64,000 nt of DNA from an uncultured virus (IMG/VR IMGVR_UViG_3300033170_000307) (IMGVR_UViG_3300033170_000307); one strand, 5' to 3'; counted from the first letter of the stretch, positions 16,683 through 64,000 are shown. The notes: generated by a model not told the origin, from the letters alone. Numbers and translations are program-made.

Positions 16683-16708
16683 TGGTTACAGACCTGTAAG
16701 CGGTTGGC
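16653..16708. repeat. 28-bp perfect tandem duplication at the tnpB start
   Basis: AATGGTTACAGACCTGTAAGCGGTTGGC at 16653-16680 and 16681-16708. Confidence 0.95.
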
Positions 16709-16718
16709 ATTGGTACTT

Positions 16719-27464: not shown

Positions 27465-27745
27465 CCTTTTTTTGACACCAGGCCCTCGGTGATTTCTGCG
27501 AGCACTTTCAGAGCTTCGTCTGGTTCGGCGGGGTTCTTGAACAGCAGCACGGAAGCGACGGTGACGCGACGGGCCAGGTGCTCCTCATGTACGTCCTTGC
27601 ACGACTTAGCCGTCTGGCGCAGGGCCCGTGCGCTCCCATGTAGGCGGTGGGTCCGCACAGGCTCGTGAAAGCCGGCCACTCGGGTGATGGTCTCACTAAT
27701 CGTCTCCAGTCTCTGCCGAAGCACCTGCCTTCCTATTTCGTTCAT
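27461..27745 (-). CDS. Hypothetical protein (MNEIGRQ...)
   Basis: GGAG RBS, co-oriented, fills the gap. Confidence 0.5.
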   Translation of the reverse strand: MNEIGRQVLRQRLETISETITRVAGFHEPVRTHRLHGSARALRQTAKSCKDVHEEHLARRVTVASVLLFKNPAEPDEALKVLAEITEGLVSKKG

Positions 27746-40068: not shown

Positions 40069-42279
40069 ATGTACGCACTACATCTCAGCGACGCACGCGG
40101 CATCGCCATCCCCCAAGACGCAACCTCCGCCTACTGTCTCATTGAGACTACCGGCTTCCCTACCATACACGCCTACGGCCAGAACCTTCCCAGTGTCTGG
40201 GAGAAGGCCGTGCGGGCGGCTTGGTTGGGCGGGGCCCCTCAGCCCACTGAGTACGACGCCCCTGCCGACCCCAACAGCCGTGATGTCATGGCCACCCTGA
40301 CCGTCTTCGACCCGCTGAGCGAGCCACGCATCCATCGCGGCATCCCTGGCGGCATCACCGAGTTGGTAACCTACGTCGAGGAGGTTGTGGCCGGCATCCA
40401 TGACTCGTGGATTGACCTGGACGACCCGCAGAAGTGGTGGTACTGCGTGGGCCCTGAGACGCCCGTATTGATGTCGGATGGCAAGCAGAAGCCAATTCGG
40501 GACTGTGCTGTAGGGGACAACGTGGTGGTCTTCAACCCTGCTGGCAACAAGTACGAGACAGGGGCCATCAAGCAGGTCGTGGAATCTCGGGATGTGGAAG
40601 CAGTGTCGCTCCGCATTGGGGGGAAGAGCGAAAGACTGGTCGCGTCTTTGACACACCCTCTGCTCACACGGGAGCGAGGATGGGTGAAAGCTGGTGACCT
40701 GAGCCTGGGGGACGAAGTGGCTGTTTCTTGGGTAGACGGCGTGGAGCTTTCCCCACCAACAGCTCCGATTGGGCACTCTCTACAATGGGTACGCGACGAG
40801 ATTGAGAAGCTAGAAGGCTTCAACACCGATAGAACCACCGGAGAACTATCGGCGCAGGGTCTTCTCCCCCTGCGTCTCAGCGACCACAAAGGGGCGCTCG
40901 TGTGCTGGCTGTTGGGGTATCTCTTTGGAGATGGCTGGTTGGAAACGCCAAAGAAGAAGTCGACGAGCCAATTCCTTTCGGGCAAGGTGGGTTTCAGCGG
41001 AGACGTGTCCACGCTTGAGACTATCAGGCGAGCGCTCAGAACTCTGGGTTTCAGTTGTGGTGAGACTCGCATCATTCAACAGAAAGCGAATCTTAGGGGG
41101 AGCGATGTCGCCGGTGCGTCGCCATCCATGGTGTGTTGCCACAGTGCTCTCTGGGTCCTATTTAGGGCCCTCGGGGCTCCGGTGGGCGACAAATCAACCG
41201 TGGAGTACGAAGTTCCCGAATGGCTGACTGACGCCCCCATTGAAGCCAAGCGAGCGTTCCTACTCGGCTTCGTTGACGCCGAAGCCAGTGCGCCATGGAA
41301 AGCCGCAGAACGCTCTGGTGCCGGCGCACGAATTGAGTTCCGGCAGTCGAAGCGCGCAGAACTCGAAAACAACCTCGCCATCTTCATGAGCCAGATGAAG
41401 GACCTCATGGAGCAGTGCGGGGTGCGTGACATCACCGAGGGGAGCTGGCTGGAAGACTGCGCATCTGTCTCGCACGTGATAAAGGTACTTAGCGCCGGTG
41501 GTGTAGATAGTTGGCTTACCGAGCTACCGTTCACGGCCTGCCAGACGAAGATGGAGCGCGCCGACATCTACACCGCGTATGTGGAGCAGGGTGCAGACAT
41601 ACCGTGGGGGGAGTGGGAGGCCGAAAGAAGGAGAATGTGGAAGGTGCTGTTTAGGCCCGTCATAGAAATCACTGCATGTCGAGAGCCTGTACTCTATGAC
41701 ATTGCCGTTGACCACAAGGACCACAACTTCATTGGTGGTGGCATTGTGTGTCATAACAGCTACCATCAGCGCTTATTCGACTACCCCATGCCAGATGGCA
41801 GCAAGGTCAACCAGGTCGAGTACGCGCTGAACAAGCTCGTGGAAGCGCCACACACGCGCCGGGCCCAGATGATTACCTGGCAACCGTGGTTCGACACGAC
41901 CTACGGCCACTGCCCGTGCCTGCAGCGCATGTGGTTCCGCGTTTTCGAGGACAAGCTCCTCATGAACGTGCATATCCGCAGCAACGACGCGTTCAAGGCC
42001 GGCTTCATGAACGCCTACGCCTTCATCGAGTTCCAGAAGTGGATGGCCGGCGAGTTGTCCAACCGTCTCGGCCGCGAAATCGGCGTGGGCCAGTACACCC
42101 ACCATGCCGACAGCTTCCACATCTACGGGTCGTACTTCGAGGACTTCAAGAAGTTCCTGGAGCTGTCCGACTCGCGGACCTGGGAGAACCGGACCTACCG
42201 CTCGGACGACGAGGCCGTCAAAGCCGAAATGGACATGGCCTATGCCATGATGCGAAGCAGGGGCGAACTGCCGGCCTAA
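40069..42279 (+). CDS. thyA: Thymidylate synthase family protein with intein
   Basis: TRRA, catalytic PCLQ, RSNDAFKAGFMN, SFHIY. Confidence 0.85.
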   Translation: MYALHLSDARGIAIPQDATSAYCLIETTGFPTIHAYGQNLPSVWEKAVRAAWLGGAPQPTEYDAPADPNSRDVMATLTVFDPLSEPRIHRGIPGGITELVTYVEEVVAGIHDSWIDLDDPQKWWYCVGPETPVLMSDGKQKPIRDCAVGDNVVVFNPAGNKYETGAIKQVVESRDVEAVSLRIGGKSERLVASLTHPLLTRERGWVKAGDLSLGDEVAVSWVDGVELSPPTAPIGHSLQWVRDEIEKLEGFNTDRTTGELSAQGLLPLRLSDHKGALVCWLLGYLFGDGWLETPKKKSTSQFLSGKVGFSGDVSTLETIRRALRTLGFSCGETRIIQQKANLRGSDVAGASPSMVCCHSALWVLFRALGAPVGDKSTVEYEVPEWLTDAPIEAKRAFLLGFVDAEASAPWKAAERSGAGARIEFRQSKRAELENNLAIFMSQMKDLMEQCGVRDITEGSWLEDCASVSHVIKVLSAGGVDSWLTELPFTACQTKMERADIYTAYVEQGADIPWGEWEAERRRMWKVLFRPVIEITACREPVLYDIAVDHKDHNFIGGGIVCHNSYHQRLFDYPMPDGSKVNQVEYALNKLVEAPHTRRAQMITWQPWFDTTYGHCPCLQRMWFRVFEDKLLMNVHIRSNDAFKAGFMNAYAFIEFQKWMAGELSNRLGREIGVGQYTHHADSFHIYGSYFEDFKKFLELSDSRTWENRTYRSDDEAVKAEMDMAYAMMRSRGELPA
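40444..41757 (+). mobile_element. LAGLIDADG intein (438 aa) in thymidylate synthase
   Basis: Y|CVGPET start, THPLLT, LLGYLFGDG and FLLGFVDAEAS, IVCHN|S end. Confidence 0.9.
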
Positions 42280-42301: not shown

Positions 42302-45443
<3,142 letters not shown>

Positions 45444-51493: not shown

Positions 51494-51985
51494 CTATGCG
51501 CTCTGCGCCCTTCTTTGCGCCTGTCGCTCCCGAAAGCAAGGCTTGCACTCGGCAAAGGGCACGCCGGTGCCAGTGACTTTGTAGAACTCGCTCAACGGGA
51601 GAACCTTCTCGCACTTCTTGCAGGGCTTGGCCGCCCATTCGCCATCCTCGCCCATGACCCAACCCCCAGCTTGGCGGTCAAGGAAGTGATGGAGACTGAT
51701 GTGCTCTTCATGAGGCATCGAGCGCAAGTTCTCCAGGCGCCAGTCCAGTTTGTTCTGGTTGATGTGATGCAGGTGGAAACCAGGGGGCAAAGGCCCGTAG
51801 TGCTTCTCCCAGACAAGCTGATGCACCTTGCGGTAGCGTTTGCCTCTGCGTTTGCCATCGGGTCCCCAGCGTGTGGCCGGCACGCACACGACGGGATAGC
51901 CATGTTCGTCCACGCGTACCTTGCCCTCGATGGGCTCGCCAAAGAACGGGGGATAGCCAGGGACTTGGTTGGGGTGTTCAGACAT
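51494..51985 (-). CDS. HNH homing-type endonuclease with C-terminal zinc finger
   Basis: VHQLVWE..YG..P.G.HLHHIN.NKLD..LENL; CKKC...CKPC. Confidence 0.85.
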   Translation of the reverse strand: MSEHPNQVPGYPPFFGEPIEGKVRVDEHGYPVVCVPATRWGPDGKRRGKRYRKVHQLVWEKHYGPLPPGFHLHHINQNKLDWRLENLRSMPHEEHISLHHFLDRQAGGWVMGEDGEWAAKPCKKCEKVLPLSEFYKVTGTGVPFAECKPCFRERQAQRRAQSA

Positions 51986-52017
51986 GAGTGCCTCGATGAG
52001 AGCTGCGATGAACCGGC

Positions 52018-52046
52018 ATGGTAGTGGTTCTTGGAGAACGTGTCAA
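52018..52046 (-). promoter_or_regulatory. sigma70-type promoter
   Basis: TTGACA-17-TACCAT. Confidence 0.65.
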
Positions 52047-52216
52047 GAAGGCAACCGAATCGGTTGGGCGAAAAACGGGCTAGCTTTATGTCCGTGGGTG
52101 CCATAGTCTGAGAATGGGCGCGAGTCGTTTCCAACGAATAAATGCCCCTGGTCTATAACCTGTTTATACTTCGTTGCGTGCTATCCTGCGCGTATGATGC
52201 GCGCAATCCTGTGCAC

Positions 52217-52266
52217 CAAAAAACTGAAAAAAAGGTCTTGACTAATGCCGGATATGGTGGTATGGT
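52217..52266 (+). promoter_or_regulatory. Strong sigma70-type promoter with A-tract UP element
   Basis: AAAAAACTGAAAAAAA, then TTGACT-17-TATGGT with extended TG. Confidence 0.75.
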
Positions 52267-52407
52267 AAGGCGTTTCAAGCAACAAGGGCACCTTGACAAC
52301 GCAGGAAGGGCGCACTCCTGCTGCATAGCAGATACGCAAGAAACCTGACGTTCCTGCGCTATTGGCGCAGGCATGGTTTCCCTTTCGCAAGACGTTACAC
52401 CTGTCGC

Positions 52408-53469
52408 ATGAAAGGGAAGTCAATGAAGGCACAGCAGCAGTATCAAGATGAGTATCGCAACGAGCATCTAGCGCGCTATGCTGACGCTCCAGAGGGGTAC
52501 GTGCAAGGGGTACGGCAGAAGGGTATCCTGAATCCGAAAGCATACCTTGTGGCGCTTTGGTGTGGGGATGGACTCCGCGCCCTCCGCGCCCTTGAGGGGG
52601 AGGAAAAGAAGCGCGCCTCCCGCGCCTTCCGAAGGACTGAGGCAAAACTGAGGGAGGGTGGCACCTTTACGGCATCTTCCCTCCTCGCGTGCATTAAGGC
52701 GGCGTTCCTCGCCCTAACGGCGGTCCCCTCCTTGTCACAGGACTTCGCTTCCGAAGTGGAGTTCGTGGCAAAGTCGGCAGACCTCGCCGACAAGGACCTT
52801 GGCGAGACCATTCGCCTCCTCGCTGGTTACAGAGGGTGTGGAGGAAAGTCCTCACGAGGCGAGGACTTGAGCGACGAGGGAAAGAGGGGGCAGGCTTACA
52901 TACGCGCATGTCGCGCGGTAAACGGCATCGCAGGCAAGCCGAGAAATATCCTGCGCAAGACACAGGTTATCCGTAACCTGTGCCAAGACTCGCCCTTCGG
53001 CGAGGCCTTGTGCGAGGTGGTCCTGTACCTCGTAAAAGTGAGGCAAGCAATGGAGCTGTTTCTCTCCTGCCTCACAAACCCGGACGTTTCCGCCGATGTG
53101 ACCGCTGAGGCTTGCGCTGAATACGTGACGCTGAGGCTAGGGGTCGCCGAAGTCCTGCAGGAGTTCAAGACGCGAGGCGGGGCCCTCTACGACGCGTATA
53201 TTGAAAAGGCCAAGGAAAAGCGCGCTGAGGTCCTGCAGGAGAAGGCGGAGGCGGAGGCGGAGGTGGGTACAATCAAGTTCCGTAGGTCCCTTGACGGAGG
53301 GCGGACTTGGACTGACGAGGAGGTTCCGCTGAGCAAGCCGCAAGGCAAGATGCGCAACCGTAGGCGAGTCCACGGAATCCAGACAGTCTCGTGGGAAGTC
53401 CTGCAGGAGAAGGCGTGGAGGCAGGAAGAGGCGCTGCAGGAAGCGGAGGAGGAGGCAGTCTGGGAGTAG
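52408..53469 (+). CDS. Hypothetical helical protein (353 aa), solitary transcription unit
   Basis: Long ORF between a strong promoter and a terminator; start may be the second Met (52423). Confidence 0.75.
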   Translation: MKGKSMKAQQQYQDEYRNEHLARYADAPEGYVQGVRQKGILNPKAYLVALWCGDGLRALRALEGEEKKRASRAFRRTEAKLREGGTFTASSLLACIKAAFLALTAVPSLSQDFASEVEFVAKSADLADKDLGETIRLLAGYRGCGGKSSRGEDLSDEGKRGQAYIRACRAVNGIAGKPRNILRKTQVIRNLCQDSPFGEALCEVVLYLVKVRQAMELFLSCLTNPDVSADVTAEACAEYVTLRLGVAEVLQEFKTRGGALYDAYIEKAKEKRAEVLQEKAEAEAEVGTIKFRRSLDGGRTWTDEEVPLSKPQGKMRNRRRVHGIQTVSWEVLQEKAWRQEEALQEAEEEAVWE

Positions 53470-53473
53470 AGAC

Positions 53474-53512
53474 AAAAAGGGCCCGCGCCGAGAGGCGCGG
53501 GCCCTTTCGTTT
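53474..53512. terminator. Bidirectional terminator
   Basis: AAAAAGGGCCCGCGCC-GAGA-GGCGCGGGCCCTTTCGTTT at the convergence point. Confidence 0.85.
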
Positions 53513-53800
53513 GTGTAGCCAGGTGTTGGCGTTAGAGGCTGAGCTGCTGCTGGGGGTGGGTGGGGATGATTGCGGATGGGGCATGAACTGAACGGCAATC
53601 ATCCTGGAGCCAAGTTTCCTGAACGGTCTTGGCGTTAGAGCCCAGCCCCTGCCCCCGCTGCTGTGCGCAGGATTGCGGGTTGGTCTTGATATGAACGGCC
53701 CGTCTCTCGGGCCCATGTTTTCCTGTCTACACTCTACGGCGCACGATTGCGGGTAGGAATAGCAACGGGCCGGCCCGAAGGCCGGCCCGTTCGTCCGTGG

Positions 53801-54142
53801 TTAGGCGACGGCCTCCGCGTTGGCGCCGAGTGCGATAGCGGCCCGTTCGTGGGGATAGCGGCCGAAGTTGGCATTGAAGACTTCGGCTTGCGCGCGGATG
53901 AAGCTGAGGGCGCGCGGCCCGGTGAAGTTGGGGTATCGACCGAAGGTGCGCCGATACCAGTTGCGATTGGCGTGGTCATCGCCATAGGGCGCGACGGCGA
54001 GGAGGTCCAGCGGCACGCCGGTGTAGACTTCGGCGACGGGTTTCGGGTGATTCTTCGACGGCCCCTGCTGGTACAGGTCACCCTTGCGGAAATTGACCTG
54101 CGCGTTCGGCTTGTAGTACACTTGGTTCGGGTTCGTGCGCAT
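53801..54142 (-). CDS. Array hypothetical protein
   Basis: Motif A upstream; hairpin at 53764-53791 downstream. Confidence 0.7.
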   Translation of the reverse strand: MRTNPNQVYYKPNAQVNFRKGDLYQQGPSKNHPKPVAEVYTGVPLDLLAVAPYGDDHANRNWYRRTFGRYPNFTGPRALSFIRAQAEVFNANFGRYPHERAAIALGANAEAVA

Positions 54143-54305
54143 AGCCTATCACTTCCCTATGGTGTGTTGTACGTCCGTCCTACACTACTGTGCGCATGAT
54201 TGCGGGCCGACCTCCTCGGCCCTACAGAAGAGAGTTTAGCATAGCAGAAGAGTTGTGTAAACTACTTTCTTACACTACGTATGCGCACGATTGCGGCCCG
54301 GTCGT

Positions 54306-54365
54306 CTACCCAAAGAGTGCGGCGAGTCCTAACATCACGAGTCCGATGAGTGCGAGTGCTATCAT
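54306..54365 (-). CDS. 19-aa hydrophobic peptide MIALALIGLVMLGLAALFG
   Basis: GGAGGT RBS; flanked by two motif A copies. Confidence 0.6.
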   Translation of the reverse strand: MIALALIGLVMLGLAALFG

Positions 54366-54560
54366 AGGCGACCTCCGAAGTGTAGTTGGTACACTACCCG
54401 GCGCACGATTGCGCGGCCCTTGGCGTTAGAGCCCAGCCCTGGCTCACGGCGGCGCTGGATGATTGCGTTTGTGACTTTCGCTGAACGGCACTGAACAGGG
54501 AGCCATGGAATCAGGAGGGGCCGAAGTCCCTCCCTACATCACTGGGCGCACGATTGCGGG

Positions 54561-54824
54561 CTACTCTGCGTCGAGCTCTACCCGTCCGGTCATATCGGTG
54601 AGCTTGCGCTGGCGCAGGATTGCGATGCGCGTCTGCGCGTGCTGGGCGCGCAGGGCGGCGACCGCCTGCGTGAAGGCGACAATGAGCACGGCGGCGGCCA
54701 GGGCGCAGCAGCCGGGGATGATGTCGCCCCGCTGCAGGTCGTGGGCCTTGAGGAATTGGTAGTAGTGGACCGAGAAGACACCGACCAGTGCTGTGATGAT
54801 GTGGCTGATGATGAGTCGTGTCAT
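54561..54824 (-). CDS. Array membrane protein (MTRLIISH...)
   Basis: GGAGG RBS; two hydrophobic helices; stop abuts motif A. Confidence 0.65.
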   Translation of the reverse strand: MTRLIISHIITALVGVFSVHYYQFLKAHDLQRGDIIPGCCALAAAVLIVAFTQAVAALRAQHAQTRIAILRQRKLTDMTGRVELDAE

Positions 54825-55779
54825 GCGTCTGCCCTCCGGCATGTTTTTGGTGCGTACACAGCTATGCGCACGATTGCGGGGGCGGGGGCGGGGGCGACGG
54901 TGCCCCCGGCTCCCCGGCACGACTTCCATACGCTTCCGCCACCACTTACCCCGCAGGGCCTCTAGAAGGCGGGTGGCGGACAACGTAGCAACACTCAGCG
55001 CATAGGCATCACCTTTGGTAGGGGGAGTTGCCGGAGGTTCGCGTTCGCTTACTCCGTACACTACTCTGCGCACGATTGCGGCCCTACTGCCGGGGCGGCG
55101 GGTAGCAGTAGGACATCAGGTTGAGCAGCAGCGCGACTATGTACATCGGCATCACCTCACACGACTGGGCGCACGATTGCGGCTCACTCACCTGCCGGGA
55201 AGAGCCACGCGAGGAAGTCGAGTGTCTTCTCCAGACAGACGGGCAGCATCACCAGCAGCCACATAGGGCATCACATCATGCCATTGTGCGCATGATTGCG
55301 GCCGGCCGCAGTGCCTGGCGTTAGAGCCCAGCCCCTGCCCCCGCTGCTCTGCGCACGATTGCGGTTAAGACTTCGATTGAACGGCTGAACAGAAGAGCCA
55401 AGGGAAAGCAGGTGTGAGCCTTCCCTTGGCCCTCCGGTGTACCTGTGTGCCTTCCCCGGAGAGGGCGGAGGCGTTGAGTTAGGCGCCTCCGGCAGCCGCT
55501 AGTCTGCGATGCCGGGACGGTGGGTAGCTCACCTTTGCAGGTGCCCGAACCTCTCTAGAACCCACCAAGTTCATCTTGGGATAGGCAGCAGGATTACTCT
55601 GTACACTACTCTGCGCAGGATTGCGGGTGGCTTTGGCGCTGGTCTGGCGCCGCTTTTGAGCCCGCTTTTCGCCCGATTGAGACGGCGAGCGTCTCACGCG
55701 ATGTTTCTGGGCGCCACCCGCTTCATACACTACTGTGCGCATGATTGCGGGGGAGGGGTTGTCTCCCCCGCGCACCTGT

Positions 55780-56172
55780 CTACATACTGTCGGCGGCGAC
55801 CATTCCGGTCGTGGCCACGCCGAAGCGCGCCTGCAAGACCTCGGCGTGCTTCTCTTGCGCGCGGCGCTGGTCGTGCTCCACGGTGCGGCGGTACCCGGTG
55901 TCATGCTTCATGCGATAGTCGTGCAGCGCCTGCCACGCGGTCTTGTAGACCGCTTCCGTTTCGGCGGTGCGGTTGCGCATCATGGCGTGGAAGGCGCGGA
56001 CTTCCGCCTGCTTGAGGTCGTGCACCGGGTCCGCTTCCGCTTCCGCCTGCCGGGCGGCGAGGTGGCGGCGCTTGGAGGCGGTGAGCCGAGCGCAATACTG
56101 CTCAAACTCCCCCTCCTCATACTGGAAGTTGTGACGGGAGTCGGGCTTGAGGGTCTTCTGCACGCGTTTCAT
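55780..56172 (-). CDS. Array hypothetical protein
   Basis: GAGG RBS; motif A on both sides. Confidence 0.7.
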   Translation of the reverse strand: MKRVQKTLKPDSRHNFQYEEGEFEQYCARLTASKRRHLAARQAEAEADPVHDLKQAEVRAFHAMMRNRTAETEAVYKTAWQALHDYRMKHDTGYRRTVEHDQRRAQEKHAEVLQARFGVATTGMVAADSM

Positions 56173-56413
56173 GTTGCCTCACCTGTTAGGTGGTATTGGT
56201 CAGGTTGACACCTGACACTACTCTGCGCACGATTGCGACACAATTACCCCTTGGGATGATTGGCTCTGGCGTTAGAGCCCGGCGCCCCGGCACGGCAGGG
56301 GCACGATTGCGGATGTGTGCAATCGATTGAACGGTCTTGAACTGGGACCCATGAAATGGAAAAGCCCCCGGCTCTCACCGGGGGCCCTTCCGCAATCATC
56401 TAGCCGCGCCGCA

Positions 56414-56560
56414 TCAGCGTGCCTCCTTGGGTATGAGTGGCTGCACACGCCACTTCGGGCGCGTGATGTTCTGGTTCGGGCGGTTCCACGCGCAGCCAAC
56501 GCTGCAGCCGACTTGGCCGCAGCGCGGGCACTTGCCTTCGTCACTCTGCCTGTAGGGCAT
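56414..56560 (-). CDS. Array small Cys-rich protein (48 aa)
   Basis: GGAGGT RBS; CPRC...C...C. Confidence 0.6.
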   Translation of the reverse strand: MPYRQSDEGKCPRCGQVGCSVGCAWNRPNQNITRPKWRVQPLIPKEAR

Positions 56561-56591
56561 ATCCAACCTCCAGAGTAGCTGGGTTCTTACA

Positions 56592-56888
56592 CTACTCTGC
56601 GCAGGATTGCGGCTTCGCCCGCCAGTGCCTGTCGCGCACAAGCGTGCGCATACGCAGGGCGGGGTGCTCCGTGATGCGTTCGTCTACCATCCGCGCTTCT
56701 TCGTCGCTGGCAGTGAAGACCAGGACCTCCGGCTGATTCTCCCAGCCGTGCTCGTGCTCCCAGGTGGGGTTCGGCCTCTTCAGGCCGGCCAGCAGGACCT
56801 CCCAGTCCACCGGCTCCTGCACCGGGAAGGTGATGCCCGTCTTGTCATAGCCGGTGCTGCCCGTCGCCCGTATGTATCGCCGTCTCAT
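56592..56888 (-). CDS. Array hypothetical protein (98 aa) ending inside motif A
   Basis: GGAGGT RBS; C-terminal PQSCAE* is encoded by the motif. Confidence 0.7.
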   Translation of the reverse strand: MRRRYIRATGSTGYDKTGITFPVQEPVDWEVLLAGLKRPNPTWEHEHGWENQPEVLVFTASDEEARMVDERITEHPALRMRTLVRDRHWRAKPQSCAE

Positions 56889-56952
56889 GATGCAACCTCC
56901 ACAGCGTAGTGGGTTCTTACACCACTCTGCGCACGATTGCGGGGCAGAGCCC

Positions 56953-57393
56953 CTACCCGTTGGGGTCGGGGGGCTCCACCTCTGCCGGGATGATTTCGCA
57001 GTAGACCTCATCGAGTTCGCCCTCGTCATTCAGTTCGTCGGGGCGGTGCTCCTGAATCCACTCCTCCATGATTCTGTAGCACTCCTGTTCGGCGTGCGCC
57101 GGCATCACGTTGCTGCAGAAGACCGCGACCGTGAGCTTGACGTAGCCGCTGCCGATGTGGAACATATAGGCGGGGTCGGGCTCGGGGAAGTCGGGCGTCT
57201 CGCTGGCGCGCTGCTTGAGCCATTCATCGCGCGCGAGATTGCGGCGCCGGGCGTACTCTGCGCCGCGCTCCCATGAGGGCAGTTCGTCCAGGTCCTTGCC
57301 GCCAGGGAAGGGTACTTCGTCGCCGGCCTGATTCAGGTAAATCATGGCGACCGCCTGCCGCGCTTCGTCGCTGTGCAGTCCGGGTGTGGGCAT
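56953..57393 (-). CDS. Array acidic hypothetical protein
   Basis: GGAGGT RBS; motif A on both sides. Confidence 0.75.
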   Translation of the reverse strand: MPTPGLHSDEARQAVAMIYLNQAGDEVPFPGGKDLDELPSWERGAEYARRRNLARDEWLKQRASETPDFPEPDPAYMFHIGSGYVKLTVAVFCSNVMPAHAEQECYRIMEEWIQEHRPDELNDEGELDEVYCEIIPAEVEPPDPNG

Positions 57394-57447
57394 GTGAGAC
57401 CTCCAGAAGTGAGTGGTTACACTCCTATGCGCACGATTGCGGCCGCC

Positions 57448-57786
57448 CTACGACGGCGGCCAGATGTCGTAGCAGCGGGTATTGCCGCAGCGCCCCACAA
57501 TGAGGTGCAGGGGAGCGAGCGCCGGGTATTCGGGGAAGCCGTAGAGCGTGCAGAAGACCGCCCGCATGACATCGGGCGTGCCACGGCGCAGCTTCTGATT
57601 GCGCTTCGTCGCTTCGGGGTGCTCCCAGACCTGTTTCTCCTCAGGCGTCCACGTATGGCGGCCCGACTCGATGCGGAAGCCCGCGTTCGTCAGAGCATCA
57701 ATCGGGTGGATGATGTGGCCGGGCGCCAGTTCTTCTGTCTGCTTGAGTGCGGCCAGCGCAGCCGCGAGCGCTTCGTCGTAGGACAT
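57448..57786 (-). CDS. Array hypothetical protein (MSYDEAL...)
   Basis: GGAGGT RBS; motif A on both sides. Confidence 0.7.
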   Translation of the reverse strand: MSYDEALAAALAALKQTEELAPGHIIHPIDALTNAGFRIESGRHTWTPEEKQVWEHPEATKRNQKLRRGTPDVMRAVFCTLYGFPEYPALAPLHLIVGRCGNTRCYDIWPPS

Positions 57787-58169
57787 GATGCGACCTCCAC
57801 AGTGTAGTGGGTACACTCCTCTGCGCACGATTGCGGGGCACACGCCGACAGCCACTCTTTCTCCCCGTGCCTCTGCTTCGCCTCATGAGGGGCACTCCAC
57901 AGAGCGAACACTTGGGAGCGAGAGGATTGGCCTGCCGGCGTCTGCCTCGCCATCTGGCGTTAGACCTGGGCCCCTGGTCCACACGTCTGCGCATGATTGC
58001 GGGTCGGATTACGATTGAACGGCAACTGAACGGGGACCTAGAAAACTGCGACCGGACGGCGCACTGGGCATTGCTGCTCCCGCTGCTACGCCCCTGTAGC
58101 CGGCTACGGGGTTCGCTGCTGTTACTCGGGATGCGCCGTCCGCTCACATCTCTATGCGCACGATTGCGG

Positions 58170-58496
58170 CTACCCCTCGTCGCCGAGGGGCACCACTATC
58201 ATCACGCCACTGAGCACGAGCACCGGGGTGGGCTCGGGCACGCCGTAGACGTGGGCATACGTCTGCAGCGCGGGGTCGGTGCTCAGCAGGCTCACGTCGC
58301 GTACCCAGTCCTTGCCACTCTCACCGATGATAGTGCAGAGGTGGGCGCAGCACTGCACGGGGCAGGTGAAGCGCGCGGCGTTGCAGCGCACGCACACTTG
58401 GTGCATTCGGTCGAGCTTGGCCAGTTCGTCAACGTCCGGGCCGTTCAGGTAGCCGTGGTTCCTGACAATCTTCTCCAGTAGCTTCTGCAGGGGCAT
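58170..58496 (-). CDS. Array hypothetical protein
   Basis: GGAGGT RBS; stop abuts motif A. Confidence 0.7.
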   Translation of the reverse strand: MPLQKLLEKIVRNHGYLNGPDVDELAKLDRMHQVCVRCNAARFTCPVQCCAHLCTIIGESGKDWVRDVSLLSTDPALQTYAHVYGVPEPTPVLVLSGVMIVVPLGDEG

Positions 58497-58568
58497 GATG
58501 CGACCTCCCGGTATGGGGTTGGGGGCAGGTCACCCTGCCCCCTATACTACTCTGCGCACGATTGCGGG

Positions 58569-58793
58569 CTACTTGATGGCGTACTTCGCGTGGAAGCGCT
58601 CGGTGTGGCTGAAGCTCTGGGTGATGCAGCGGCCGATGCGCACGGCCCCCGCGTTGCCCACGAAGACCTTGCGGTCCTCGCTCATCTTCGGGTGCGTGAA
58701 GCAGCGGTACTTGCGCCCTCTGGTCTGGGTCTCGGTGTACCCGAGTTCCTGCAGCTTGGCGATGACCTGCTCCGTCTTGGTCAGCTTGGCCAT
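58569..58793 (-). CDS. Array basic protein (MAKLTKT..., 74 aa)
   Basis: GGAGGT RBS; stop abuts motif A. Confidence 0.7.
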   Translation of the reverse strand: MAKLTKTEQVIAKLQELGYTETQTRGRKYRCFTHPKMSEDRKVFVGNAGAVRIGRCITQSFSHTERFHAKYAIK

Positions 58794-58869
58794 GGGTGCG
58801 ACCTCCATAGATGTGATGGATACGTGGGGAGCACTGCGGCTCCCCACGATACTCTGCGCACGATTGCGG

Positions 58870-59154
58870 CTACCGTATCGTGCGACCGGGGCGCTGGTCC
58901 ACAGCCTCCTGAATGTGATGGCCCACGTCGTCGCCGAGTTGCTCGGCGATGGGCTTGGTCTTGTCGTCGCCTGCAGGCAGCCCGGCCTTCTCGCGGAAGG
59001 CGGACTCCACTGCGCCGATAACGCTGCTGGTGGCATAGACGTGCCCCTTCTGGCGGGGGAACTTCTCGCCGCGCAGGGTCACCTGCATACCCTGAAAGAC
59101 GCCCATGTACCAGACCTCACGGACGCGACACGCTTCCTTCTGAATGGGTCTCAT
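58870..59154 (-). CDS. Array hypothetical protein (MRPIQKE...)
   Basis: GGAGGT RBS; stop abuts motif A. Confidence 0.7.
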   Translation of the reverse strand: MRPIQKEACRVREVWYMGVFQGMQVTLRGEKFPRQKGHVYATSSVIGAVESAFREKAGLPAGDDKTKPIAEQLGDDVGHHIQEAVDQRPGRTIR

Positions 59155-59389
59155 GACGACCTCCCTGTCGGGGTGTGTGCTACACTGTTGTGCGCACGAT
59201 TGCGGCAGGCTTGTCGTGTACCGCCAACGGCCTTCCTGCTGGTCGGTGCCAACCGTAGCCAGTTGGAAGTGGCAATGCCATTGACGATACCCGACAAGCC
59301 TGGCGTTAGAGCCAGGCCGGCCGCTCTCCACACATCTCTGCGCAGGATTGCGGCAAGGGAGGCCGCCTGAACGGCCTCCCTTTCGGGAC

Positions 59390-59833
59390 CTAGAATGTGG
59401 GAACCGTCTCGAAGCCGCGCCCCGTGAAGATGGGGACGCTCGGCTCCGGCTCCTCCTGCTCCTCCCACAGGTGCCGGGGCTGCAGCGGCCACCCGCTCTT
59501 GTCATAGAGTTGGCCGCAGTTGTCGCAGCAGGACGTGAAGTCATCGAGAGTCACTTCGGCTCTGCACACTACACAGCGCGCGATTGCGGGCTCGACGTAG
59601 CTCCATTCATACTTCTGCACGTAGATGGGGAAGCGCTTGGCGCCCGTGATGAAGTCGGTGACGACCTTGCGATAGTTGTCAAGCCACGTCTGGGACTTGC
59701 CCTCGAAGTCCACACAGCCGCGCTCGTCGGACTTGAAAGCGAAGCCGGAGCCGCGCCCGTGCACATCGCACGCCAGACTGTACTCCACGCAATCGACCGG
59801 CTTGGCCTCACTGATGATTTCCGCCTGGGGCAT
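59390..59833 (-). CDS. Array protein with C-terminal zinc ribbon (MPQAEII...)
   Basis: AGGAGGT RBS; CVVC...CDNC; contains an internal motif A-like copy. Confidence 0.75.
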   Translation of the reverse strand: MPQAEIISEAKPVDCVEYSLACDVHGRGSGFAFKSDERGCVDFEGKSQTWLDNYRKVVTDFITGAKRFPIYVQKYEWSYVEPAIARCVVCRAEVTLDDFTSCCDNCGQLYDKSGWPLQPRHLWEEQEEPEPSVPIFTGRGFETVPTF

Positions 59834-59868
59834 GGTACGACCTCCTGAGTTCATGGTTCGTGCTTACA

Positions 59869-60042
59869 CTACTCTGCGCACGATTGCGGAGACAGGACTG
59901 GCTTGCCGGCGCGCACGACTCGGTAAGTGCCGCTGAATTGGGGGTGCTTGCCTGCCACGGCCAGCCGCGCATAGCGCATGTCGGACTCGTCGCGGATGGT
60001 GGCGAAGTCCATATAGGGCTCCAGGACCACATCATCGGGCAT
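59869..60042 (-). CDS. Array protein (57 aa, MPDDVVLEP...PQSCAE)
   Basis: AGGAGGT RBS; translated by hand; stop lies inside motif A. Confidence 0.65.
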   Translation of the reverse strand: MPDDVVLEPYMDFATIRDESDMRYARLAVAGKHPQFSGTYRVVRAGKPVLSPQSCAE

Positions 60043-60114
60043 GGTACGACCTCCTGTGAATCAGGGTGCGGGGAGGGTTGCCCCTCCCCGATACTTCTCT
60101 GCGCACGATTGCGG

Positions 60115-60396
60115 CTACTCGATGGGCGGCGGGACCGGGATAGACCATGCCGCTTGGATGACGTTGGCCGGAGCGTCCGGGTACTTGCGGTCGGGAATCT
60201 CGAAGCCCTTGGCGGCGAAGTTGAGTTCGCCATTGGGCAGGGTGGGGACTTCCACCACGTCACCGCGCCGGGGCACGTTCAGGTCGTTGGCCGCGACCTC
60301 GTAGAAGTGGCCCTCCTGCGTGAGTAGGCGCACACCCAACATACCAAAGTCATTGCGACTCTCTGAGACGCCGAAGCACTTCATCTCGACTGGCAT
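60115..60396 (-). CDS. Array hypothetical protein
   Basis: AGGAGGT RBS; stop abuts motif A. Confidence 0.75.
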   Translation of the reverse strand: MPVEMKCFGVSESRNDFGMLGVRLLTQEGHFYEVAANDLNVPRRGDVVEVPTLPNGELNFAAKGFEIPDRKYPDAPANVIQAAWSIPVPPPIE

Positions 60397-60470
60397 GAGA
60401 CGACCTCCTGTGAGACAGGGTGCGGGGGCGGTTGCCCGCCCCCGATACTACTCTGCGCACGATTGCGGGG

Positions 60471-60830
60471 CTACCGTTCCCGCATCTGCACGTCATCGAG
60501 CGAGGGCGTATCCTCGCAGGTGCATTCGCTGTCATAGTTGCCGCAGCGGCGGCAACGGCCATCGCGGCCCCCGTCTTCGTCTTCGTCGCTCTTGGGCTTG
60601 GCGGGCTGCCATTCGCCGTCAATCAAGACGCCGAGGAAGGTGCGCCCCCCGCTGCCCCCGCTGCCCCCGGTGGCGTAGACGTTGAAGTGGTCCTGCCCGC
60701 CGCCGTGGTGGGCGACAACCTCGATACCGCAGTGCCAGCCGTTGACGTGGGCGGTGAGCCCCGTCTGCTTGTCACCGAGCCGCGACGCTTCGCCACGACC
60801 GCCCCGCAAAGTCCCTCTGAACTGTGCCAT
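60471..60830 (-). CDS. Array hypothetical protein (MAQFRGT...)
   Basis: GGAGGT RBS; C-terminal Cys cluster. Confidence 0.75.
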   Translation of the reverse strand: MAQFRGTLRGGRGEASRLGDKQTGLTAHVNGWHCGIEVVAHHGGGQDHFNVYATGGSGGSGGRTFLGVLIDGEWQPAKPKSDEDEDGGRDGRCRRCGNYDSECTCEDTPSLDDVQMRER

Positions 60831-60974
60831 GTGCGACCTCCCGTGAATTGGGGTGCGGGGAGGGTTGCCCCTCCCCGATACTACTCTGCGCACGATTGCG
60901 GGGCTACTTCCACGCTGCGCCCAGACCCTCCTGCATGATGTCCTGCACGGCCTTGACCTGAGCGGCGACGCTCA

Positions 60975-61184
60975 TTAGGACACCACCTGGCCCTGGCGGG
61001 CGGCGCGGTTGCGGACGCGGCGGCCTGCGGCGCGGTGGTTGAGCATGGCCTGCGTGTCGGCGAAGGTGAGCTTGCGGGCGTTGCCGTTGCGGTCCTTCGG
61101 GGTGCGGCGCTGGCTGCAGGAGCTGCAGTTGGGCGTGCCGTTGGGGCGGGAGCAGGTGTTCGCATTGCACGTCGAGATGACCAT
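60975..61184 (-). CDS. Array small basic Cys-rich protein
   Basis: GGAGGT RBS; followed by a coupled 23-aa ORF at 60904..60975. Confidence 0.65.
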   Translation of the reverse strand: MVISTCNANTCSRPNGTPNCSSCSQRRTPKDRNGNARKLTFADTQAMLNHRAAGRRVRNRAARQGQVVS

Positions 61185-61259
61185 GGGTGAGACCTCCAGA
61201 GGTATGGGTTGGGGCAGCAGATGCTGCCCCGTTGTACACTTGTCTGCGCAGGATTGCTG

Positions 61260-61628
61260 CTACCCGAACTTCGTGGGGTTGGCCTCCACGAGGTCGCCCC
61301 AGCTACCGACCCAGAAGCGGCCCTGCCGAGCGTCATAGAGCAGGGTGGCGTCGTAGGTCTCCCCGGTGTTGCAGTAGTACACACCGTGGCCGAGGGTCTC
61401 GACCCCGAAGGTGCCGAGCAGGTGGTCGGCGATGAGGAGAATGTTGCTGCTGCGGTTGCCCGCAGGCAGGTAGTCGTGCTTCCCCGGCTGCACACCGAGC
61501 ATATCGGCGACCGGGATAGACTTGACCTCGCGCTTGATGAGGGCCCGAAGCAGTGCCAGCTTGCAGGTGGCTATCTTCGGGAAGAGAGCCTGCAGAGTCT
61601 TCATCGAAGCGAAGCCGTGCTGTGCCAT
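61260..61628 (-). CDS. Array hypothetical protein
   Basis: GGAGGT RBS; stop abuts motif A. Confidence 0.75.
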   Translation of the reverse strand: MAQHGFASMKTLQALFPKIATCKLALLRALIKREVKSIPVADMLGVQPGKHDYLPAGNRSSNILLIADHLLGTFGVETLGHGVYYCNTGETYDATLLYDARQGRFWVGSWGDLVEANPTKFG

Positions 61629-61656
61629 GATGCGACCTCCATGCTGTGATGGGTGC

Positions 61657-62166
61657 TTACACTACTGTGCGCAGGATTGCGCGCAGGTCGCTGGCGTGAT
61701 GGCGGGTGCTGGCGGAGACGGCGGCGTCAGAGGGCATGGCCTGTCCTTCGGGCATGTTGTCCAGCACCTTAGCGTTCGCTTCCCACCTGTCCGCGAGCTT
61801 CTCCAGTTCCTCCTCCAGCGTGGGAATGCTGTCGCCGAAGTTGATGCAGCCCCGAAGCTGGATGGGGTTCAGGACCTCGGGTCCGTGCTGCTCGCAGGCG
61901 TCCGTGACGATGTGCTGCGCCAGTTCGTAGGCGGACGCTGGCGGCAGGTCGGTGCGGCGTGTGAGCAGTTGTGTATCCTGCAGCGTGGGCGTCTTGTCTT
62001 CCCCGGCCAGATGCACGCGGCCGGCAGTGACGCAGCCCAGTTCGTGCCGGATGAGGACGAAGCCCGGCTTGCCCACCTGCTCCTCGTCCACTTCCTGCTC
62101 GGGCAGCCAGAGGCAGCCCACGTCGTACTTTGTCGCCGGGTCGTTCCCCGGCTGTCCGCTGACCAT
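61657..62166 (-). CDS. Array hypothetical protein (MVSGQPG...)
   Basis: GGAGGT RBS; reads through motif A as AILRTVV*. Confidence 0.7.
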   Translation of the reverse strand: MVSGQPGNDPATKYDVGCLWLPEQEVDEEQVGKPGFVLIRHELGCVTAGRVHLAGEDKTPTLQDTQLLTRRTDLPPASAYELAQHIVTDACEQHGPEVLNPIQLRGCINFGDSIPTLEEELEKLADRWEANAKVLDNMPEGQAMPSDAAVSASTRHHASDLRAILRTVV

Positions 62167-62218
62167 GATGTGACCTCCATGCGGTGATGGGTACACTGCT
62201 CTGCGCAGGATTGCGGGC

Positions 62219-62728
62219 TCAGCCATAGACTTCGGACTGCGCCCGCTTGTGGAAGTCTTCCGGCGTCTCGCTCCAGTGCTGCTTGAGAAGCCAGTCCCGG
62301 CGCTTGCCGTCGCGTACCTGGTAGGCCAGCAGGCCACAGTAGGCGGTGATTTCGTAGCCCAGCCAGTACATGGTGATTGCGGCGTTGCCGCAGAAGTCCC
62401 CGGCGCGGCTCATGCTGTACTGCGGGCCGGGAGGTGTGGCGAGTTGCGGGTCAACGTCCCTCGATTCGCTGGTGGTCTCGACGCCCGTGGCATACAGGCG
62501 CTCGATGACCCAGAGCGTATCGCCAGACAGCAGCTTGTAGCAGGTCTGCTGGCGCGGGTAGCTGCTGTAGTAGTAGATGCCTGCGGCGTCGTGCACGTGA
62601 GCGTGCAGCGTCTCGGCGCTCTCCAGCTTGGCCGTCGCCATCTGGCCCCTGGCCTGCTGTGCCGTGATGTAGCTCTTGGTGCCGTCTGGCCCCTCCAGCA
62701 GGTAGACCTTGCGCGTGTACGTCCTCAT
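62219..62728 (-). CDS. Array hypothetical protein (MRTYTRK...)
   Basis: GGAGGT RBS; stop abuts motif A. Confidence 0.75.
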   Translation of the reverse strand: MRTYTRKVYLLEGPDGTKSYITAQQARGQMATAKLESAETLHAHVHDAAGIYYYSSYPRQQTCYKLLSGDTLWVIERLYATGVETTSESRDVDPQLATPPGPQYSMSRAGDFCGNAAITMYWLGYEITAYCGLLAYQVRDGKRRDWLLKQHWSETPEDFHKRAQSEVYG

Positions 62729-63252
62729 GAGCGACCTCCCGTGAATTGGGGTGCGGGGAGGGTTGCCCCTCCCCGATACTACTCTGCGCACGATTGCGAT
62801 GGGCCTGGCGTTAGAGCCCGGCCGGCCGGCGCCCGCGCGTGCGCGCGATTGCGGGTTGGGAATCGTCTGAACGGCAACAGAACAGGGAGCCAGGAATACG
62901 AAAAGCCCCCGGCCATTGCGTCTTCAGGCCGGGGGCTCTCTCATTTCTGTGCTCAGAAACCTGACAGTCTGCTTATTGAGCGCGCTGCCTGCGCTGGGGG
63001 GCTGGGGCTTCGTCAGCCATACCCTGTCGGGTACAGGGGAATGGGCCTCACCTCCAACGGTTCGACTGCGCTGCCTTGACTTAGTAGATGGCAGCAGGAC
63101 AACGGCTTGGACAGCAGCGCGTCAGTGGGCGCCACGTCTTGTGGGGGCAGAGCAACGAAGCTCAGGCCAACCAAGACAACCGTCATTACTACCATGCGCA
63201 GCCTCATCCCGCAGTGATGTACAACTCACGTATCTGAGCGCTTGATTGCGGC

Positions 63253-63552
63253 TCAGGAGTTTGCTACGGCGTCCACGTCCGTGACGTGCAGGCGCTTGCC
63301 GCGCAACTGCAGGCGCACGTGGATGGGGAGCTTGGCGGGCTGGCCGATGGCGCGGTACTTGACCGTGGCGCTGGTGTTGCCACTCGGGAGCACCAGAGCG
63401 TGCTTGCCCGTGGTGGCCACGTCATCGAGCTTGTAGAGCGCATCGCTCAGGACGAACTGCTCGGGCAGGGCGGTGCCGGGCTTCTTGATGTGCTCGGCTA
63501 CGTCGGTGAGGCTACGGAAGACCAGAGCCAGCGTCGGCTTCTTTCTGGGCAT
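63253..63552 (-). CDS. Array hypothetical protein (MPRKKPT...)
   Basis: GGAGGT RBS; motif A on both sides. Confidence 0.7.
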   Translation of the reverse strand: MPRKKPTLALVFRSLTDVAEHIKKPGTALPEQFVLSDALYKLDDVATTGKHALVLPSGNTSATVKYRAIGQPAKLPIHVRLQLRGKRLHVTDVDAVANS

Positions 63553-63604
63553 GTTCAACCTCCACAGCGTGTAGTGGGTTACACTACTTGGCGCACGATT
63601 GCGC

Positions 63605-64000
63605 CTATGCTATCGCGACCAGCGGGGTGCCGTCAACCTGTTTCGTGCTGGCGCTGGCCACAGCGGCGCGAGCGCGGAGCATGAGACCGGGTACGAACTT
63701 GGGCGCGCCCATGCCCGCAGGCACACCGGCGGCTTCCTGAACGGTGCCTTCGATGACCCGCAGGAGTAGGGGCTGGGTGTAGCCCACACGGTCCTCGGCC
63801 CATTGCAGCGTAAGGTCGTACATACTGTCGGTGTGAGTGGCCTTGGCGGTGAACGCGTCCAGCAGCGGAGCGCTATGCACAGTGCACAGGTACACGCCTT
63901 CCATGGTGCGGCCGTCTACGGTCAACTGCCGGGTGGAGCGAGCGTGTGGCGTGCGGGTGTACTCACGCATCCACGGTTCCAGCTTCTCGAACGGCACGAA
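63605..64000 (-). CDS. Array hypothetical protein, start probably beyond the window
   Basis: Open frame to the right edge; stop abuts motif A. Confidence 0.65.
   Translation of the reverse strand, partial: FVPFEKLEPWMREYTRTPHARSTRQLTVDGRTMEGVYLCTVHSAPLLDAFTAKATHTDSMYDLTLQWAEDRVGYTQPLLLRVIEGTVQEAAGVPAGMGAPKFVPGLMLRARAAVASASTKQVDGTPLVAIA

Follow-up and report, generated by a model that had tools for sequence, protein, structure and literature searches.

The closest known system to the gene array described here is the promoter-early stem-loop (PeSL) cassette of T4-type phages, in which a promoter and a GGGG...CCCC stem-loop lie between the small ORFan genes of an early, plastic region (PMC2839356, PMC4122927). 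As far as the accessible parts of these two papers go, PeSLs are sigma-70-like (-35, -10 and an AT-rich upstream part), their stem-loops act as terminators, close relatives differ by insertion, deletion or replacement with crossovers in the units at varied points, and no dedicated recombinase is known (PMC2839356, PMC4122927). The locus that we consider is an array of small minus-strand genes in a 64,000-nucleotide (nt) stretch of DNA (the window) from the uncultured virus IMGVR_UViG_3300033170_000307, where a motif of 25 base pairs (bp), called class 1, recurs in front of almost every gene and a longer composite element, called class 2, stands at the block boundaries. The array works like a PeSL system without being one, because it shares the logic and the pattern of variants but has neither the sigma-70-like promoter nor the terminator function of the stem-loop, and belongs to another phage lineage.

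The likeness lies in the mostly intergenic copies in an ORFan-rich, hyperplastic region, in the stable GC stem-loop adjacent to some of them (the others have unstructured leaders), and in the insertions, deletions and replacements that separate relatives at the elements. Circular excision products (mini-circles) are a further PeSL trait. Unlike PeSLs, the copies here have no -35 box and no AT-rich upstream part, their core is unlike any host consensus, and the hairpins, placed downstream of the motif, have no U-tract. There is also about one element per gene (49 in 16.4 kb), with the second composite element in addition, and the phage is unrelated to T4 (its large terminase, TerL, is about 30% identical to those of Bacillus siphoviruses).

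For the signal itself, the nearest analogue appears to be the class-specific promoter motifs of jumbo phages. The phages phiKZ and 201phi2-1 have class-specific early promoter motifs of ~30 bp upstream of hypothetical genes, served by their own polymerases; the motifs are AT-rich, and six early promoters are mapped in 201phi2-1 (PMC11512511). Like these, the class-1 motif is long, lies directly upstream of gene starts, is limited to one block of hypothetical genes and belongs to a genome of more than 200 kb. Unlike these, it occurs in many more copies and is not AT-rich overall. No phiKZ-type polymerase subunit was found among the open reading frames (ORFs) of the 70 kb visible to us (the window and its extension).

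We favour, with reasonable rather than high confidence, the reading that the array is a lineage-specific module of early promoter and leader, served by phage-specified transcription machinery, whose repeats double as homology handles for gene cassettes.

Results

The class-1 motif

The window corresponds to positions 7982-71981 of a 215,187-bp sludge metagenome contig, in reverse complement. The whole array was analysed as one 16.4-kb stretch through locus L061, whose coordinate x equals 69888 minus the window coordinate. When 3 mismatches are allowed, the 25-mer CCGCAATCVTGCGCAGAGTAGTGTA matches at 24 sites between 54181 and 63604, every one of them on the minus strand; 100 shuffles predict 0.00. 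With the 12-base core GCAATCNTGCGC at up to 1 mismatch there are 42 matches against 2.10 expected (largest shuffle 6), of which 39 are on the minus strand at 53665-63602; this is the number of co-oriented copies that a reading of the sequence alone (the sequence-only reading) had proposed. The other three lie at 15907(+), 52180(+) and 52203(+). The same reading had suspected that the array runs past the window edge, and it does so for at least 5.5 kb: the core CGCAATCNTGCGC has 49 co-oriented copies in the 16.4 kb, 40 inside the window and 9 in the next 5.9 kb.

The full motif, class 1, has 42 copies, of which 34 are intergenic, 5 overlap the end of the upstream ORF and 3 are degenerate copies inside ORFs; 33 copies fall in the window part of the array. 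Its core, C-GCAATC-N-TGCGC, is invariant across the set, an invariance guaranteed in part by selection, as the set was picked by GCAATC plus 2 mismatches. The one variable position, counted over 42 copies as G 29, C 8, A 4 and T 1, is the final base of the "loop", just where the sequence-only reading had placed the variation. The 3' half, A-G-A-G-T-A-G-T-G-T-A, is conserved at 60-88% and is the only AT-rich part of the motif, while positions -25 to -3 upstream of the core carry about 0 bits. No TTGACA-like box lies 16-18 nt from TAGTGT in the class-1 copies. The dyad of the motif has a 4-bp stem and a 4-nt loop (-3.6 kcal/mol as DNA, -3.3 as RNA), with a longer 6-bp stem in 2 copies only.

Outside the array, the remaining 53 kb of the window contain neither motif class, barring the three isolated core matches. 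A wider scan, which the sequence-only reading had called for, places the motif in the array and nowhere else above chance: the exact motif has no match in IMG/VR, a degenerate form has 60 loci there with one chance copy each, and GTDB genomes give 4 single matches, near the chance expectation. Neither class was found in any other phage, viral contig or genome searched, the literature not having been searched for the motif sequence itself.

The isolated matches deserve a word. The one at 15907 is part of the sole exact core match outside the array, CCGCAATCGTGCGC at 15905-15918 (+), inside a TnpB gene. The other two, which may be chance matches, form the following feature.

52180..52214 (+): pair of core-like sites, 1 mismatch in each, ~25-60 nt before the neighbour gene's sigma-70-like promoter (52238-52266)

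Around them, an AT-richer divergent region (51494-52270) contains an HNH endonuclease gene, as well as two canonical sigma-70-like promoters that face apart. A TAG within the motif was considered as part of it and rejected, TAG being the commonest stop codon outside the array too (17 of 33 ORFs). Within the array, TAG ends 21 of 28 ORFs by script, with one more TAG and one TAA by eye; such a preference is unusual at 63% GC.

Gene units and leaders

Thirty array ORFs were called by ribosome site, ATG and third-position GC content (GC3), 29 of them with visible upstream DNA. In 27 of these 29 small ORFan genes a class-1 copy ends 21-52 nt before the ATG, and the genes bear a GGAGG-type ribosome site. 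The spacing is bimodal, with 15 copies at 21-32 nt and 12 at 40-52 nt. At the other side, 23 of the 39 copies that are not inside ORFs start between -26 and +10 nt from the stop codon of the preceding gene, and five ORFs terminate within the motif, on its TAG or TAA. The unit of stop codon, motif, leader, ribosome site and ATG, as first described from the sequence, holds. Where the intergenic gap after a terminator is long (8 cases), the motif keeps to the downstream start, as in a copy that lies 333 nt past the stop and 26 nt before the ATG.

A GC hairpin of 7-10 bp (z scores -2.1 to -4.1) is present in every one of the 11 long leaders tested; it begins 1-9 nt after the GUGU/GUAU of the motif (offsets +19 to +27 from the motif's G). 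These hairpins belong to 11 of 27 gene-proximal copies, or about 40% of the modules. Their arms vary between copies yet stay paired, for example GGGGAGGGG/CCCTCCCC vs GGGGGCGGG/CCGCCCCC. Nine short leaders fold no better than shuffles, and a hairpin between the 3' half of the motif and the short leader was rejected on that ground.

The array products are small, from 20 to 247 amino acids (aa). None of 27 proteins reaches a Pfam cut-off (one has a weak, sub-threshold zinc-finger match), and among 28 ORFs no pair is related at E<0.01, in line with the earlier view that the genes are unrelated. The motif recurs about every 350 bp. The class-1 copies and ORFs of the window part are given below; X4, X12 and X16 are sequencing runs whose contigs are compared further on.

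53527..64000 (-): window part of the array, 20 small ORFs, 33 class-1 copies, 8 class-2 elements
63580..63604 (-): class-1 motif, 28 nt before the ATG of the 99-aa ORF
63227..63251 (-): class-1, degenerate (8 mismatches), after the block's last gene, no gene behind
62775..62799 (-): class-1 with leader hairpin, before a 169-aa ORF
62192..62216 (-): class-1, before the second 169-aa ORF
61658..61682 (-): class-1; upstream ORF ends within it (TAA of GTGTAA)
61235..61259 (-): class-1 with leader hairpin
60877..60901 (-): class-1 with leader hairpin
60444..60468 (-): class-1 with leader hairpin that has two compensatory pair changes
60090..60114 (-): class-1 with leader hairpin
59865..59889 (-): class-1, exact consensus; upstream 57-aa ORF stops at its TAG
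59565..59589 (-): motif-like copy (4 mismatches) inside the 147-aa ORF
59181..59205 (-): class-1, block's first
58845..58869 (-): class-1 with leader hairpin
58543..58567 (-): class-1 with leader hairpin
58145..58169 (-): class-1 after the block's last gene, then a long hairpin and U-tract
57812..57836 (-): class-1, block's first
57418..57442 (-): class-1
56918..56942 (-): class-1
56588..56612 (-): class-1, exact consensus; upstream ORF stops at its TAG
56214..56238 (-): class-1 with leader hairpin, block's first; left end of the 2037-nt deletion in X4
55726..55750 (-): class-1, no ORF behind (~100 nt non-coding)
55602..55626 (-): class-1, exact consensus, then ~190 nt non-coding and a terminator
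55277..55301 (-): class-1, degenerate; left end of the 119-nt motif-to-motif deletion in X12
55158..55182 (-): class-1 before a 20-aa ORF; right end of the X12 deletion
55057..55081 (-): class-1, exact consensus, no clear ORF behind
54855..54879 (-): class-1 before the 87-aa ORF
54535..54559 (-): class-1 after the block's last gene, straight into a terminator-like hairpin
54390..54414 (-): class-1 before the 23-aa hydrophobic ORF
54272..54296 (-): class-1 with a 1-nt insertion, then the sigma-70-like promoter TTTACA-N17-TAAACT (54261-54233)
54181..54205 (-): class-1 before the 113-aa ORF; right end of the X4 deletion 5 nt behind
53728..53752 (-): class-1 behind the last terminator, no gene
63253..63552 (-): ORF, 99 aa, no Pfam family
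62219..62728 (-): ORF, 169 aa, no Pfam family
61657..62166 (-): ORF, 169 aa, no Pfam family, not a paralogue of the ORF at 62219..62728
61260..61628 (-): ORF, 122 aa; missing from an X16 contig
60975..61184 (-): ORF, 69 aa
60471..60830 (-): ORF, 119 aa
60115..60396 (-): ORF, 93 aa
59869..60042 (-): ORF, 57 aa; cleanly removed with one motif copy in an X16 contig
59390..59833 (-): ORF, 147 aa
58870..59154 (-): ORF, 94 aa
58569..58793 (-): ORF, 74 aa; skipped in an X16 contig (short side, 30 nt)
58170..58496 (-): ORF, 108 aa; within 1110 nt replaced by ~720 other nt in X4
57448..57786 (-): ORF, 112 aa; within the same replaced 1110-nt stretch
56953..57393 (-): ORF, 146 aa
56592..56888 (-): ORF, 98 aa
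56414..56560 (-): ORF, 48 aa
55780..56172 (-): ORF, 130 aa
54561..54824 (-): ORF, 87 aa
54294..54365 (-): ORF, 23 aa, hydrophobic
53801..54142 (-): ORF, 113 aa, the array's last gene

Behind some class-1 copies, perfect or almost so, no credible ORF appears for 100-230 nt (55400-55750, 58030-58143 and 54900-55057), and one such stretch ends in a terminator. Their folds (z scores -0.5 to -2.0) give no clear RNA genes among these stretches, which may be small RNAs or remnants of lost genes.

The class-2 element and the layout of blocks

The sequence-only reading had framed every gene by a single conserved motif. Class 1 bears this out; what had gone undistinguished is class 2, a separate, longer element in 9 copies. 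It is a composite of ~95 bp with four boxes at near-fixed spacing, TGGSTCCC-N9-GCCGTTCA-N14-CGCAATC-N28-35-GGCTCTAACGCCA, in which the 28-35 nt before GGCTCTAACGCCA are GC-rich. With class 1 it shares only the CGCAATC core. The full core is present with up to 2 mismatches in 7 copies, is reduced to just CGCAATC in one and is missing in one. Each class-2 element comes after a terminator or strong hairpin and, except for the last two, precedes the first class-1 copy of the next gene run by 7-119 nt. A block can therefore be written as class 2, then class 1 plus gene one to eight times, often an extra class-1 copy, and a terminator. In most blocks the class-1 sites outnumber the genes by one (n+1 for n), a pattern that repeated insertion at a motif already in place would produce.

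62806..62874 (-): class-2 element (GCCGTTCA ... CGCAATC ... GGCTCTAACGCCA), after a terminator at ~62900-62945
59301..59374 (-): class-2 element; GCCGTTCA in the loop of a 12-bp hairpin at 59355-59382
57955..58022 (-): class-2 element
56267..56334 (-): class-2 element, after a terminator at 56358-56391
55316..55384 (-): class-2 element, after a terminator at 55392-55435
54421..54488 (-): class-2 element, core reduced to CGCAATC, after a hairpin at 54513-54534
53630..53698 (-): class-2 element, no gene behind
53527..53595 (-): class-2 element, the final one ahead of the bidirectional terminator
53475..53508 (no strand): common bidirectional terminator of the array and of the convergent gene 52408-53469

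No family that we found explains class 2, and its pattern has no match in IMG/VR. As a structured RNA it was set aside, the consensus fold being only -2.98 kcal/mol with 6 pairs; a closing helix TGGC/GCCA, seen by eye in 5 of 9 copies, was dropped. As a sigma-54, extracytoplasmic function (ECF) or sigma-70 promoter it was rejected for mismatched spacings and words. It carries GTT... and ...AAC words that pair imperfectly and stand in the opposite order to integron attC sites. Its last box resembles the boxA antitermination word, GCUCUUUAAC; this is a lead only.

Variation between samples

We now turn to the question whether genes come and go at the motif, a check that the sequence-only reading had suggested. 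Contigs of three DNA runs and of one RNA-labelled run, X16, were compared with L061:1-18500 (runs X3, X4, X12 and X16). All run data are assemblies, which report presence and joints rather than transcript starts, ends or levels; the contigs of X16 cross motif copies and terminators and may be DNA. Ten of 23 distinct joints were kept: these have both ends inside the array, and either a flank that is long or moderately so or replaced letters that are defined. The 13 dropped are mostly motif cross-matches of 21-35 nt that jump several kb, left out because their inclusion would inflate the association with the motif; also dropped were two joints touching position 1 of the stretch and two at or beyond the array edge.

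The answer is positive. In the 10 variants, 9 of 20 breakpoints fall within -5 to +28 of a motif start where 10% are expected (binomial P ~7e-5, the pairs not being independent); six more are in leaders or at a class-2 end and five elsewhere, for example those of a 137-nt deletion past the window edge, described below. In X16 the joint 60115->59889 has lost the 57-aa ORF and one motif copy, with 18 letters shared at the joint. In X12 the joint 55279->55159 brings two motif copies together at their 3' ends. The X4 joint 56214->54176 connects the last base of one motif to a point 5 nt behind another with 2037 nt lost, while a second X4 contig retains the 56214-54176 DNA, so both forms co-occur. 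From the last base of a motif, 61658->61209 (X16) has lost the 122-aa ORF and gained a different leader hairpin. Replacement is seen as well: at 58516...57405 (X4) 1110 nt with two ORFs and a class-2 element give way to ~720 nt with a motif copy, and at 57955->57835 (X16) 16 nt stand in place of the 119 nt that separate a class-2 end from the motif after it. The crossovers keep to no single fixed point, with 18, 3 or no shared letters (in the last case with 1 inserted base) and offsets from -3 to +27.

No recombinase family was found among the ORFs scanned in the 70 kb. Together with the varied crossovers and the 4-bp dyad, this makes ordinary recombination between short repeats a better fit than an integron-like system, and the mechanism would most simply be repeat-mediated, as argued for PeSLs. 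Of the earlier idea that each accessory gene is a module, the part that stands is that each gene has its own signal and leader and that insertions and deletions occur at the motif; integron-like, site-specific exchange is the poorer fit.

Two differences between samples lie within coding DNA. Close to its start, the 99-aa ORF has an 18-nt in-frame insertion (L061 6344, window ~63544) in X4, X12 and X16 that is absent from the reference and X3. Past the window edge, an X16 contig (flank 192 nt) has a 137-nt deletion at the end of a 155-aa ORF (L061 3228-3366, ~66522-66660) with breakpoints unrelated to the motif; in the reference this ORF is followed, in another frame, by an open stretch with CxxC pairs.

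Discussion

The promoter reading

The primary job of the class-1 motif is most likely that of a promoter, as favoured by the anatomy: the distance to the start codon, the restriction to one block, the AT-richer 3' end and the hairpins right after the motif. The sequence-only reading had allowed for an ordinary repeated promoter as the outcome that would deflate its cassette model, and from the anatomy we infer that outcome. The block would be a hyperplastic, probably early (host-takeover) gene region of the 215-kb phage, made of modules with four parts. In each, the 25-bp lineage-specific promoter would combine the core CGCAATCNTGCGC for recognition with an AT-richer opening region, AGAGTAGTGTA; the leader, in part of the modules beginning with its GC hairpin, would come next, followed by the strong GGAGG ribosome site and the ORF. 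The other 53 kb, which hold the genes for packaging, structure and DNA metabolism, are free of the motif, as would be expected if it served one temporal class, and small ORFans without family or paralogues are typical of early regions.

The putative reader may be a phage RNA polymerase, a phage sigma factor or the host polymerase redirected by a phage factor on the core. A phage-specified reader is most likely, since the motif has no -35 box while the same phage has canonical TTGACA-N17-TAnnnT promoters: TTGACT-N17-TATGGT at 52238-52266, TTGACA-N17-TACCAT at 52046-52018, the one at 54261-54233 listed above and, by eye, TTGACA-N17-TAGTAT in the extension past the window. Transcription would start at the 3' edge of the motif or a few bases past it, in the manner of T7-type and jumbo-phage polymerase promoters, a predicted start that suits both the hairpins and the shortest (21-nt) leader; the position of the hairpin right behind the motif fits a 5'-terminal stabiliser on an RNA that begins at the motif edge. 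Alternatively, the start may lie ~7 nt past TAGTGT as a -10 box, with host polymerase and a factor on the core. If it does lie beyond TAGTGT, the hairpin would occur only in read-through RNA, as has been proposed for one PeSL subclass (PMC2839356). With a motif every ~350 bp, the repeated 25-50 bp would also serve as homology, allowing deletion, insertion and replacement of single genes or gene groups.

Several observations weigh against this reading. No RNA polymerase or sigma gene, single-subunit RNA polymerases included, was found among the 68 ORFs scanned from the 70 kb in sets of 31 and 37, to which a further six, some of them repeats, were added. Read as a -10 box, TAGTGT would have a key A conserved at just 69% and would place the start inside the hairpin arm. 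A promoter for each gene with no terminator between is more than expression needs, and some copies after the last gene of a block point into a terminator (54535-54559) or into non-coding DNA. The class-2 elements occupy the sites where block promoters are expected, and the promoter model leaves them unexplained. Lastly, joints from contig comparison are biased towards repeats.

The layout has parallels among other phages. In a T7-type promoter with a phi10-like leader, ~23-25 contiguous conserved bp are followed by a G-rich 5' hairpin, a spacer without structure and then a strong ribosome site ahead of the ATG; here too a contiguous conserved block of 25 bp is followed by hairpin, ribosome site and ATG, but the genome is five times larger and there is no sequence likeness. 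The host-takeover module of Bacillus phage SPO1 comprises about two dozen very small genes near the genome end with many strong repeated early promoters, of host sigma-A type, and ribosome sites. The present array resembles it as a block of very small genes near a genome end with repeated signals and strong ribosome sites; we know of no strain-level cassette turnover reported for the SPO1 module. The N4-type virion polymerase promoter is a DNA hairpin with a 5-7 bp stem and a 3-nt loop upstream of the start, unlike the 4-bp stem and 4-nt loop of the motif here.

Alternative explanations

In one rival reading each block is transcribed from a single promoter in its class-2 element, which would account for the one such element that opens every block just past the previous terminator. 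Class 1, as a CGCA-AUCN-UGCG hairpin with its tail, would then be an endonuclease cut site that yields single-gene messages, the downstream piece of each cut beginning with a protective hairpin. We consider this unlikely, despite several points that speak for it: the motifs flank genes on both sides, n+1 for n genes and including copies after the last gene; a single copy per gene is better suited to processing than to initiation; the mini-hairpin can form as RNA; the leader hairpins begin directly behind the motif; and contigs of the RNA-labelled run, possibly DNA, span motif copies. However, the hairpin has only 4 pairs and no covariation, its stem changes being confined to degenerate copies, and a DNA promoter in class 2 and an RNA cut site in class 1 would share a core by coincidence. 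Core-like sites also occur upstream of a sigma-70-type promoter on the other strand, class 2 is likewise without sigma-70-like hexamers, and the array and extension ORFs scanned include no nuclease candidate. Those core-like sites and the truncated cores in class 2 also speak for another rival, in which a phage repressor or activator binds the core over or beside weak host promoters and the motif itself has no promoter activity. Such an operator array, which we hold improbable, would explain why the 13-bp core with its small dyad is conserved above the rest, and TAGTGT fits a loose TAnnnT -10 pattern. The stoperators of cluster A mycobacteriophages are of this kind, genome-wide, oriented with transcription and bound by the immunity repressor, and the start-associated sequences (SAS) of cluster K lie directly on the ribosome site. 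What they have in common with the present array is a short, oriented intergenic site repeated dozens of times; here, in contrast, the motif is confined to one block at a fixed short distance of 21-52 nt upstream of starts. Its half-sites are 4 bp only, and no repressor or integrase is seen near the array, the sole Cro/C1-type helix-turn-helix protein seen being 26 kb away.

A dedicated cassette system, with the motif or class 2 as the site of a site-specific recombinase and integron-like excision and insertion, is in our view very improbable. The resemblance to integron cassettes is in the co-oriented, unrelated small genes, each bounded by repeats, with strain-level gain, loss and replacement of single genes, and extends to the n+1 architecture and to the imperfectly pairing GTT.../...AAC words of class 2. 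Integron attC sites, however, are 57-141 bp long with the structure R''-L''...L'-R' (RYYYAAC...GTTRRRY), and the IntI tyrosine recombinase and attI lie next to the array. Here the words are in reverse order, class 2 has no conserved fold, and class 1, 25 bp with a 4-bp dyad, is unlike attC, lox or dif; there is no common promoter (Pc), each gene having its own leader and ribosome site. The crossovers are varied as described, and neither IntI nor another recombinase family was found in the ORFs scanned. Finally, a bolder version of the promoter reading is conceivable, if doubtful: the 25-mer would be the start signal of a novel machinery and would form with class 2 a new punctuation of transcription units (a terminator plus four boxes at fixed spacing, the last of them boxA-like), the genes would be plug-in cassettes, and blocks would be exchanged actively, for example as excised circles, rather than by passive recombination.

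The phage and its neighbouring genes

The source is a novel, uncultured jumbo phage, widespread in wastewater plants, as judged by its distant terminase and by array DNA that is present, at least in part, in 20 public runs of 14 studies (sludge, wastewater, digesters), 11 of which contain half or more of the stretch's words and two of which are marked as its possible source. Against phage records, a TerL tblastn search gives at most about 31% identity, to Bacillus siphoviruses, and in IMG/VR the best relative is 33% identical. A megablast search of the array against 50,697 phage records gives zero matches, a pattern scan of GTDB genomes for ligase relatives no close one, and a metagenome scan returns solely the window's own contig. 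None of these searches gave a relative suited to a comparison of synteny. At gathering scores the window has no Rfam match, and ARAGORN likewise reports none.

The array block lies close to one end of the 215-kb contig; the genome is 63% GC and the window 59-65%. By a family scan of its ORFs, the window encodes the large terminase, glycosyltransferases, a radical-SAM protein, a NADAR protein, an NAD-dependent ligase, an HNH endonuclease and an IS605-type TnpB, while most ORFs of structural size have no family match. Next to the array lies one gene that faces it.

52408..53469 (+): convergent gene, 353 aa, no family

This gene is a candidate regulator by position only. Protein P0001 was tried as a recognisable DNA-binding protein and rejected (no Pfam or PHROG family, a low-confidence Atlas model); its homologues are confined to near-identical phages, and a scan of IMG/VR gave no relatives of it.

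Other genes of the window show features of their own. A thymidylate synthase (40069-42279, +) and an N6/N4 DNA methylase (27696-29549, -) each bear an intein splicing domain, and the NAD-dependent DNA ligase (42885-45443, +) is extended at its N terminus by ~125 aa that match no family. The TnpB (15489-16682, -; domains Cas12f1-like TNB and OrfB_IS605) lies among structural genes, and just past its start a 29-nt unit stands in two tandem copies (~16652-16709).

Conclusions

The cassette turnover described here is drawn directly from population-level variants, and it extends the PeSL idea, that regulatory repeats are handles for modular gene exchange, past T4-type phages and past host-type promoters. 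The array is a very regular set of ~40 natural variants of one predicted phage-specific promoter with two leader types, through which the polymerase or factor of a widespread uncultured jumbo phage could be identified.

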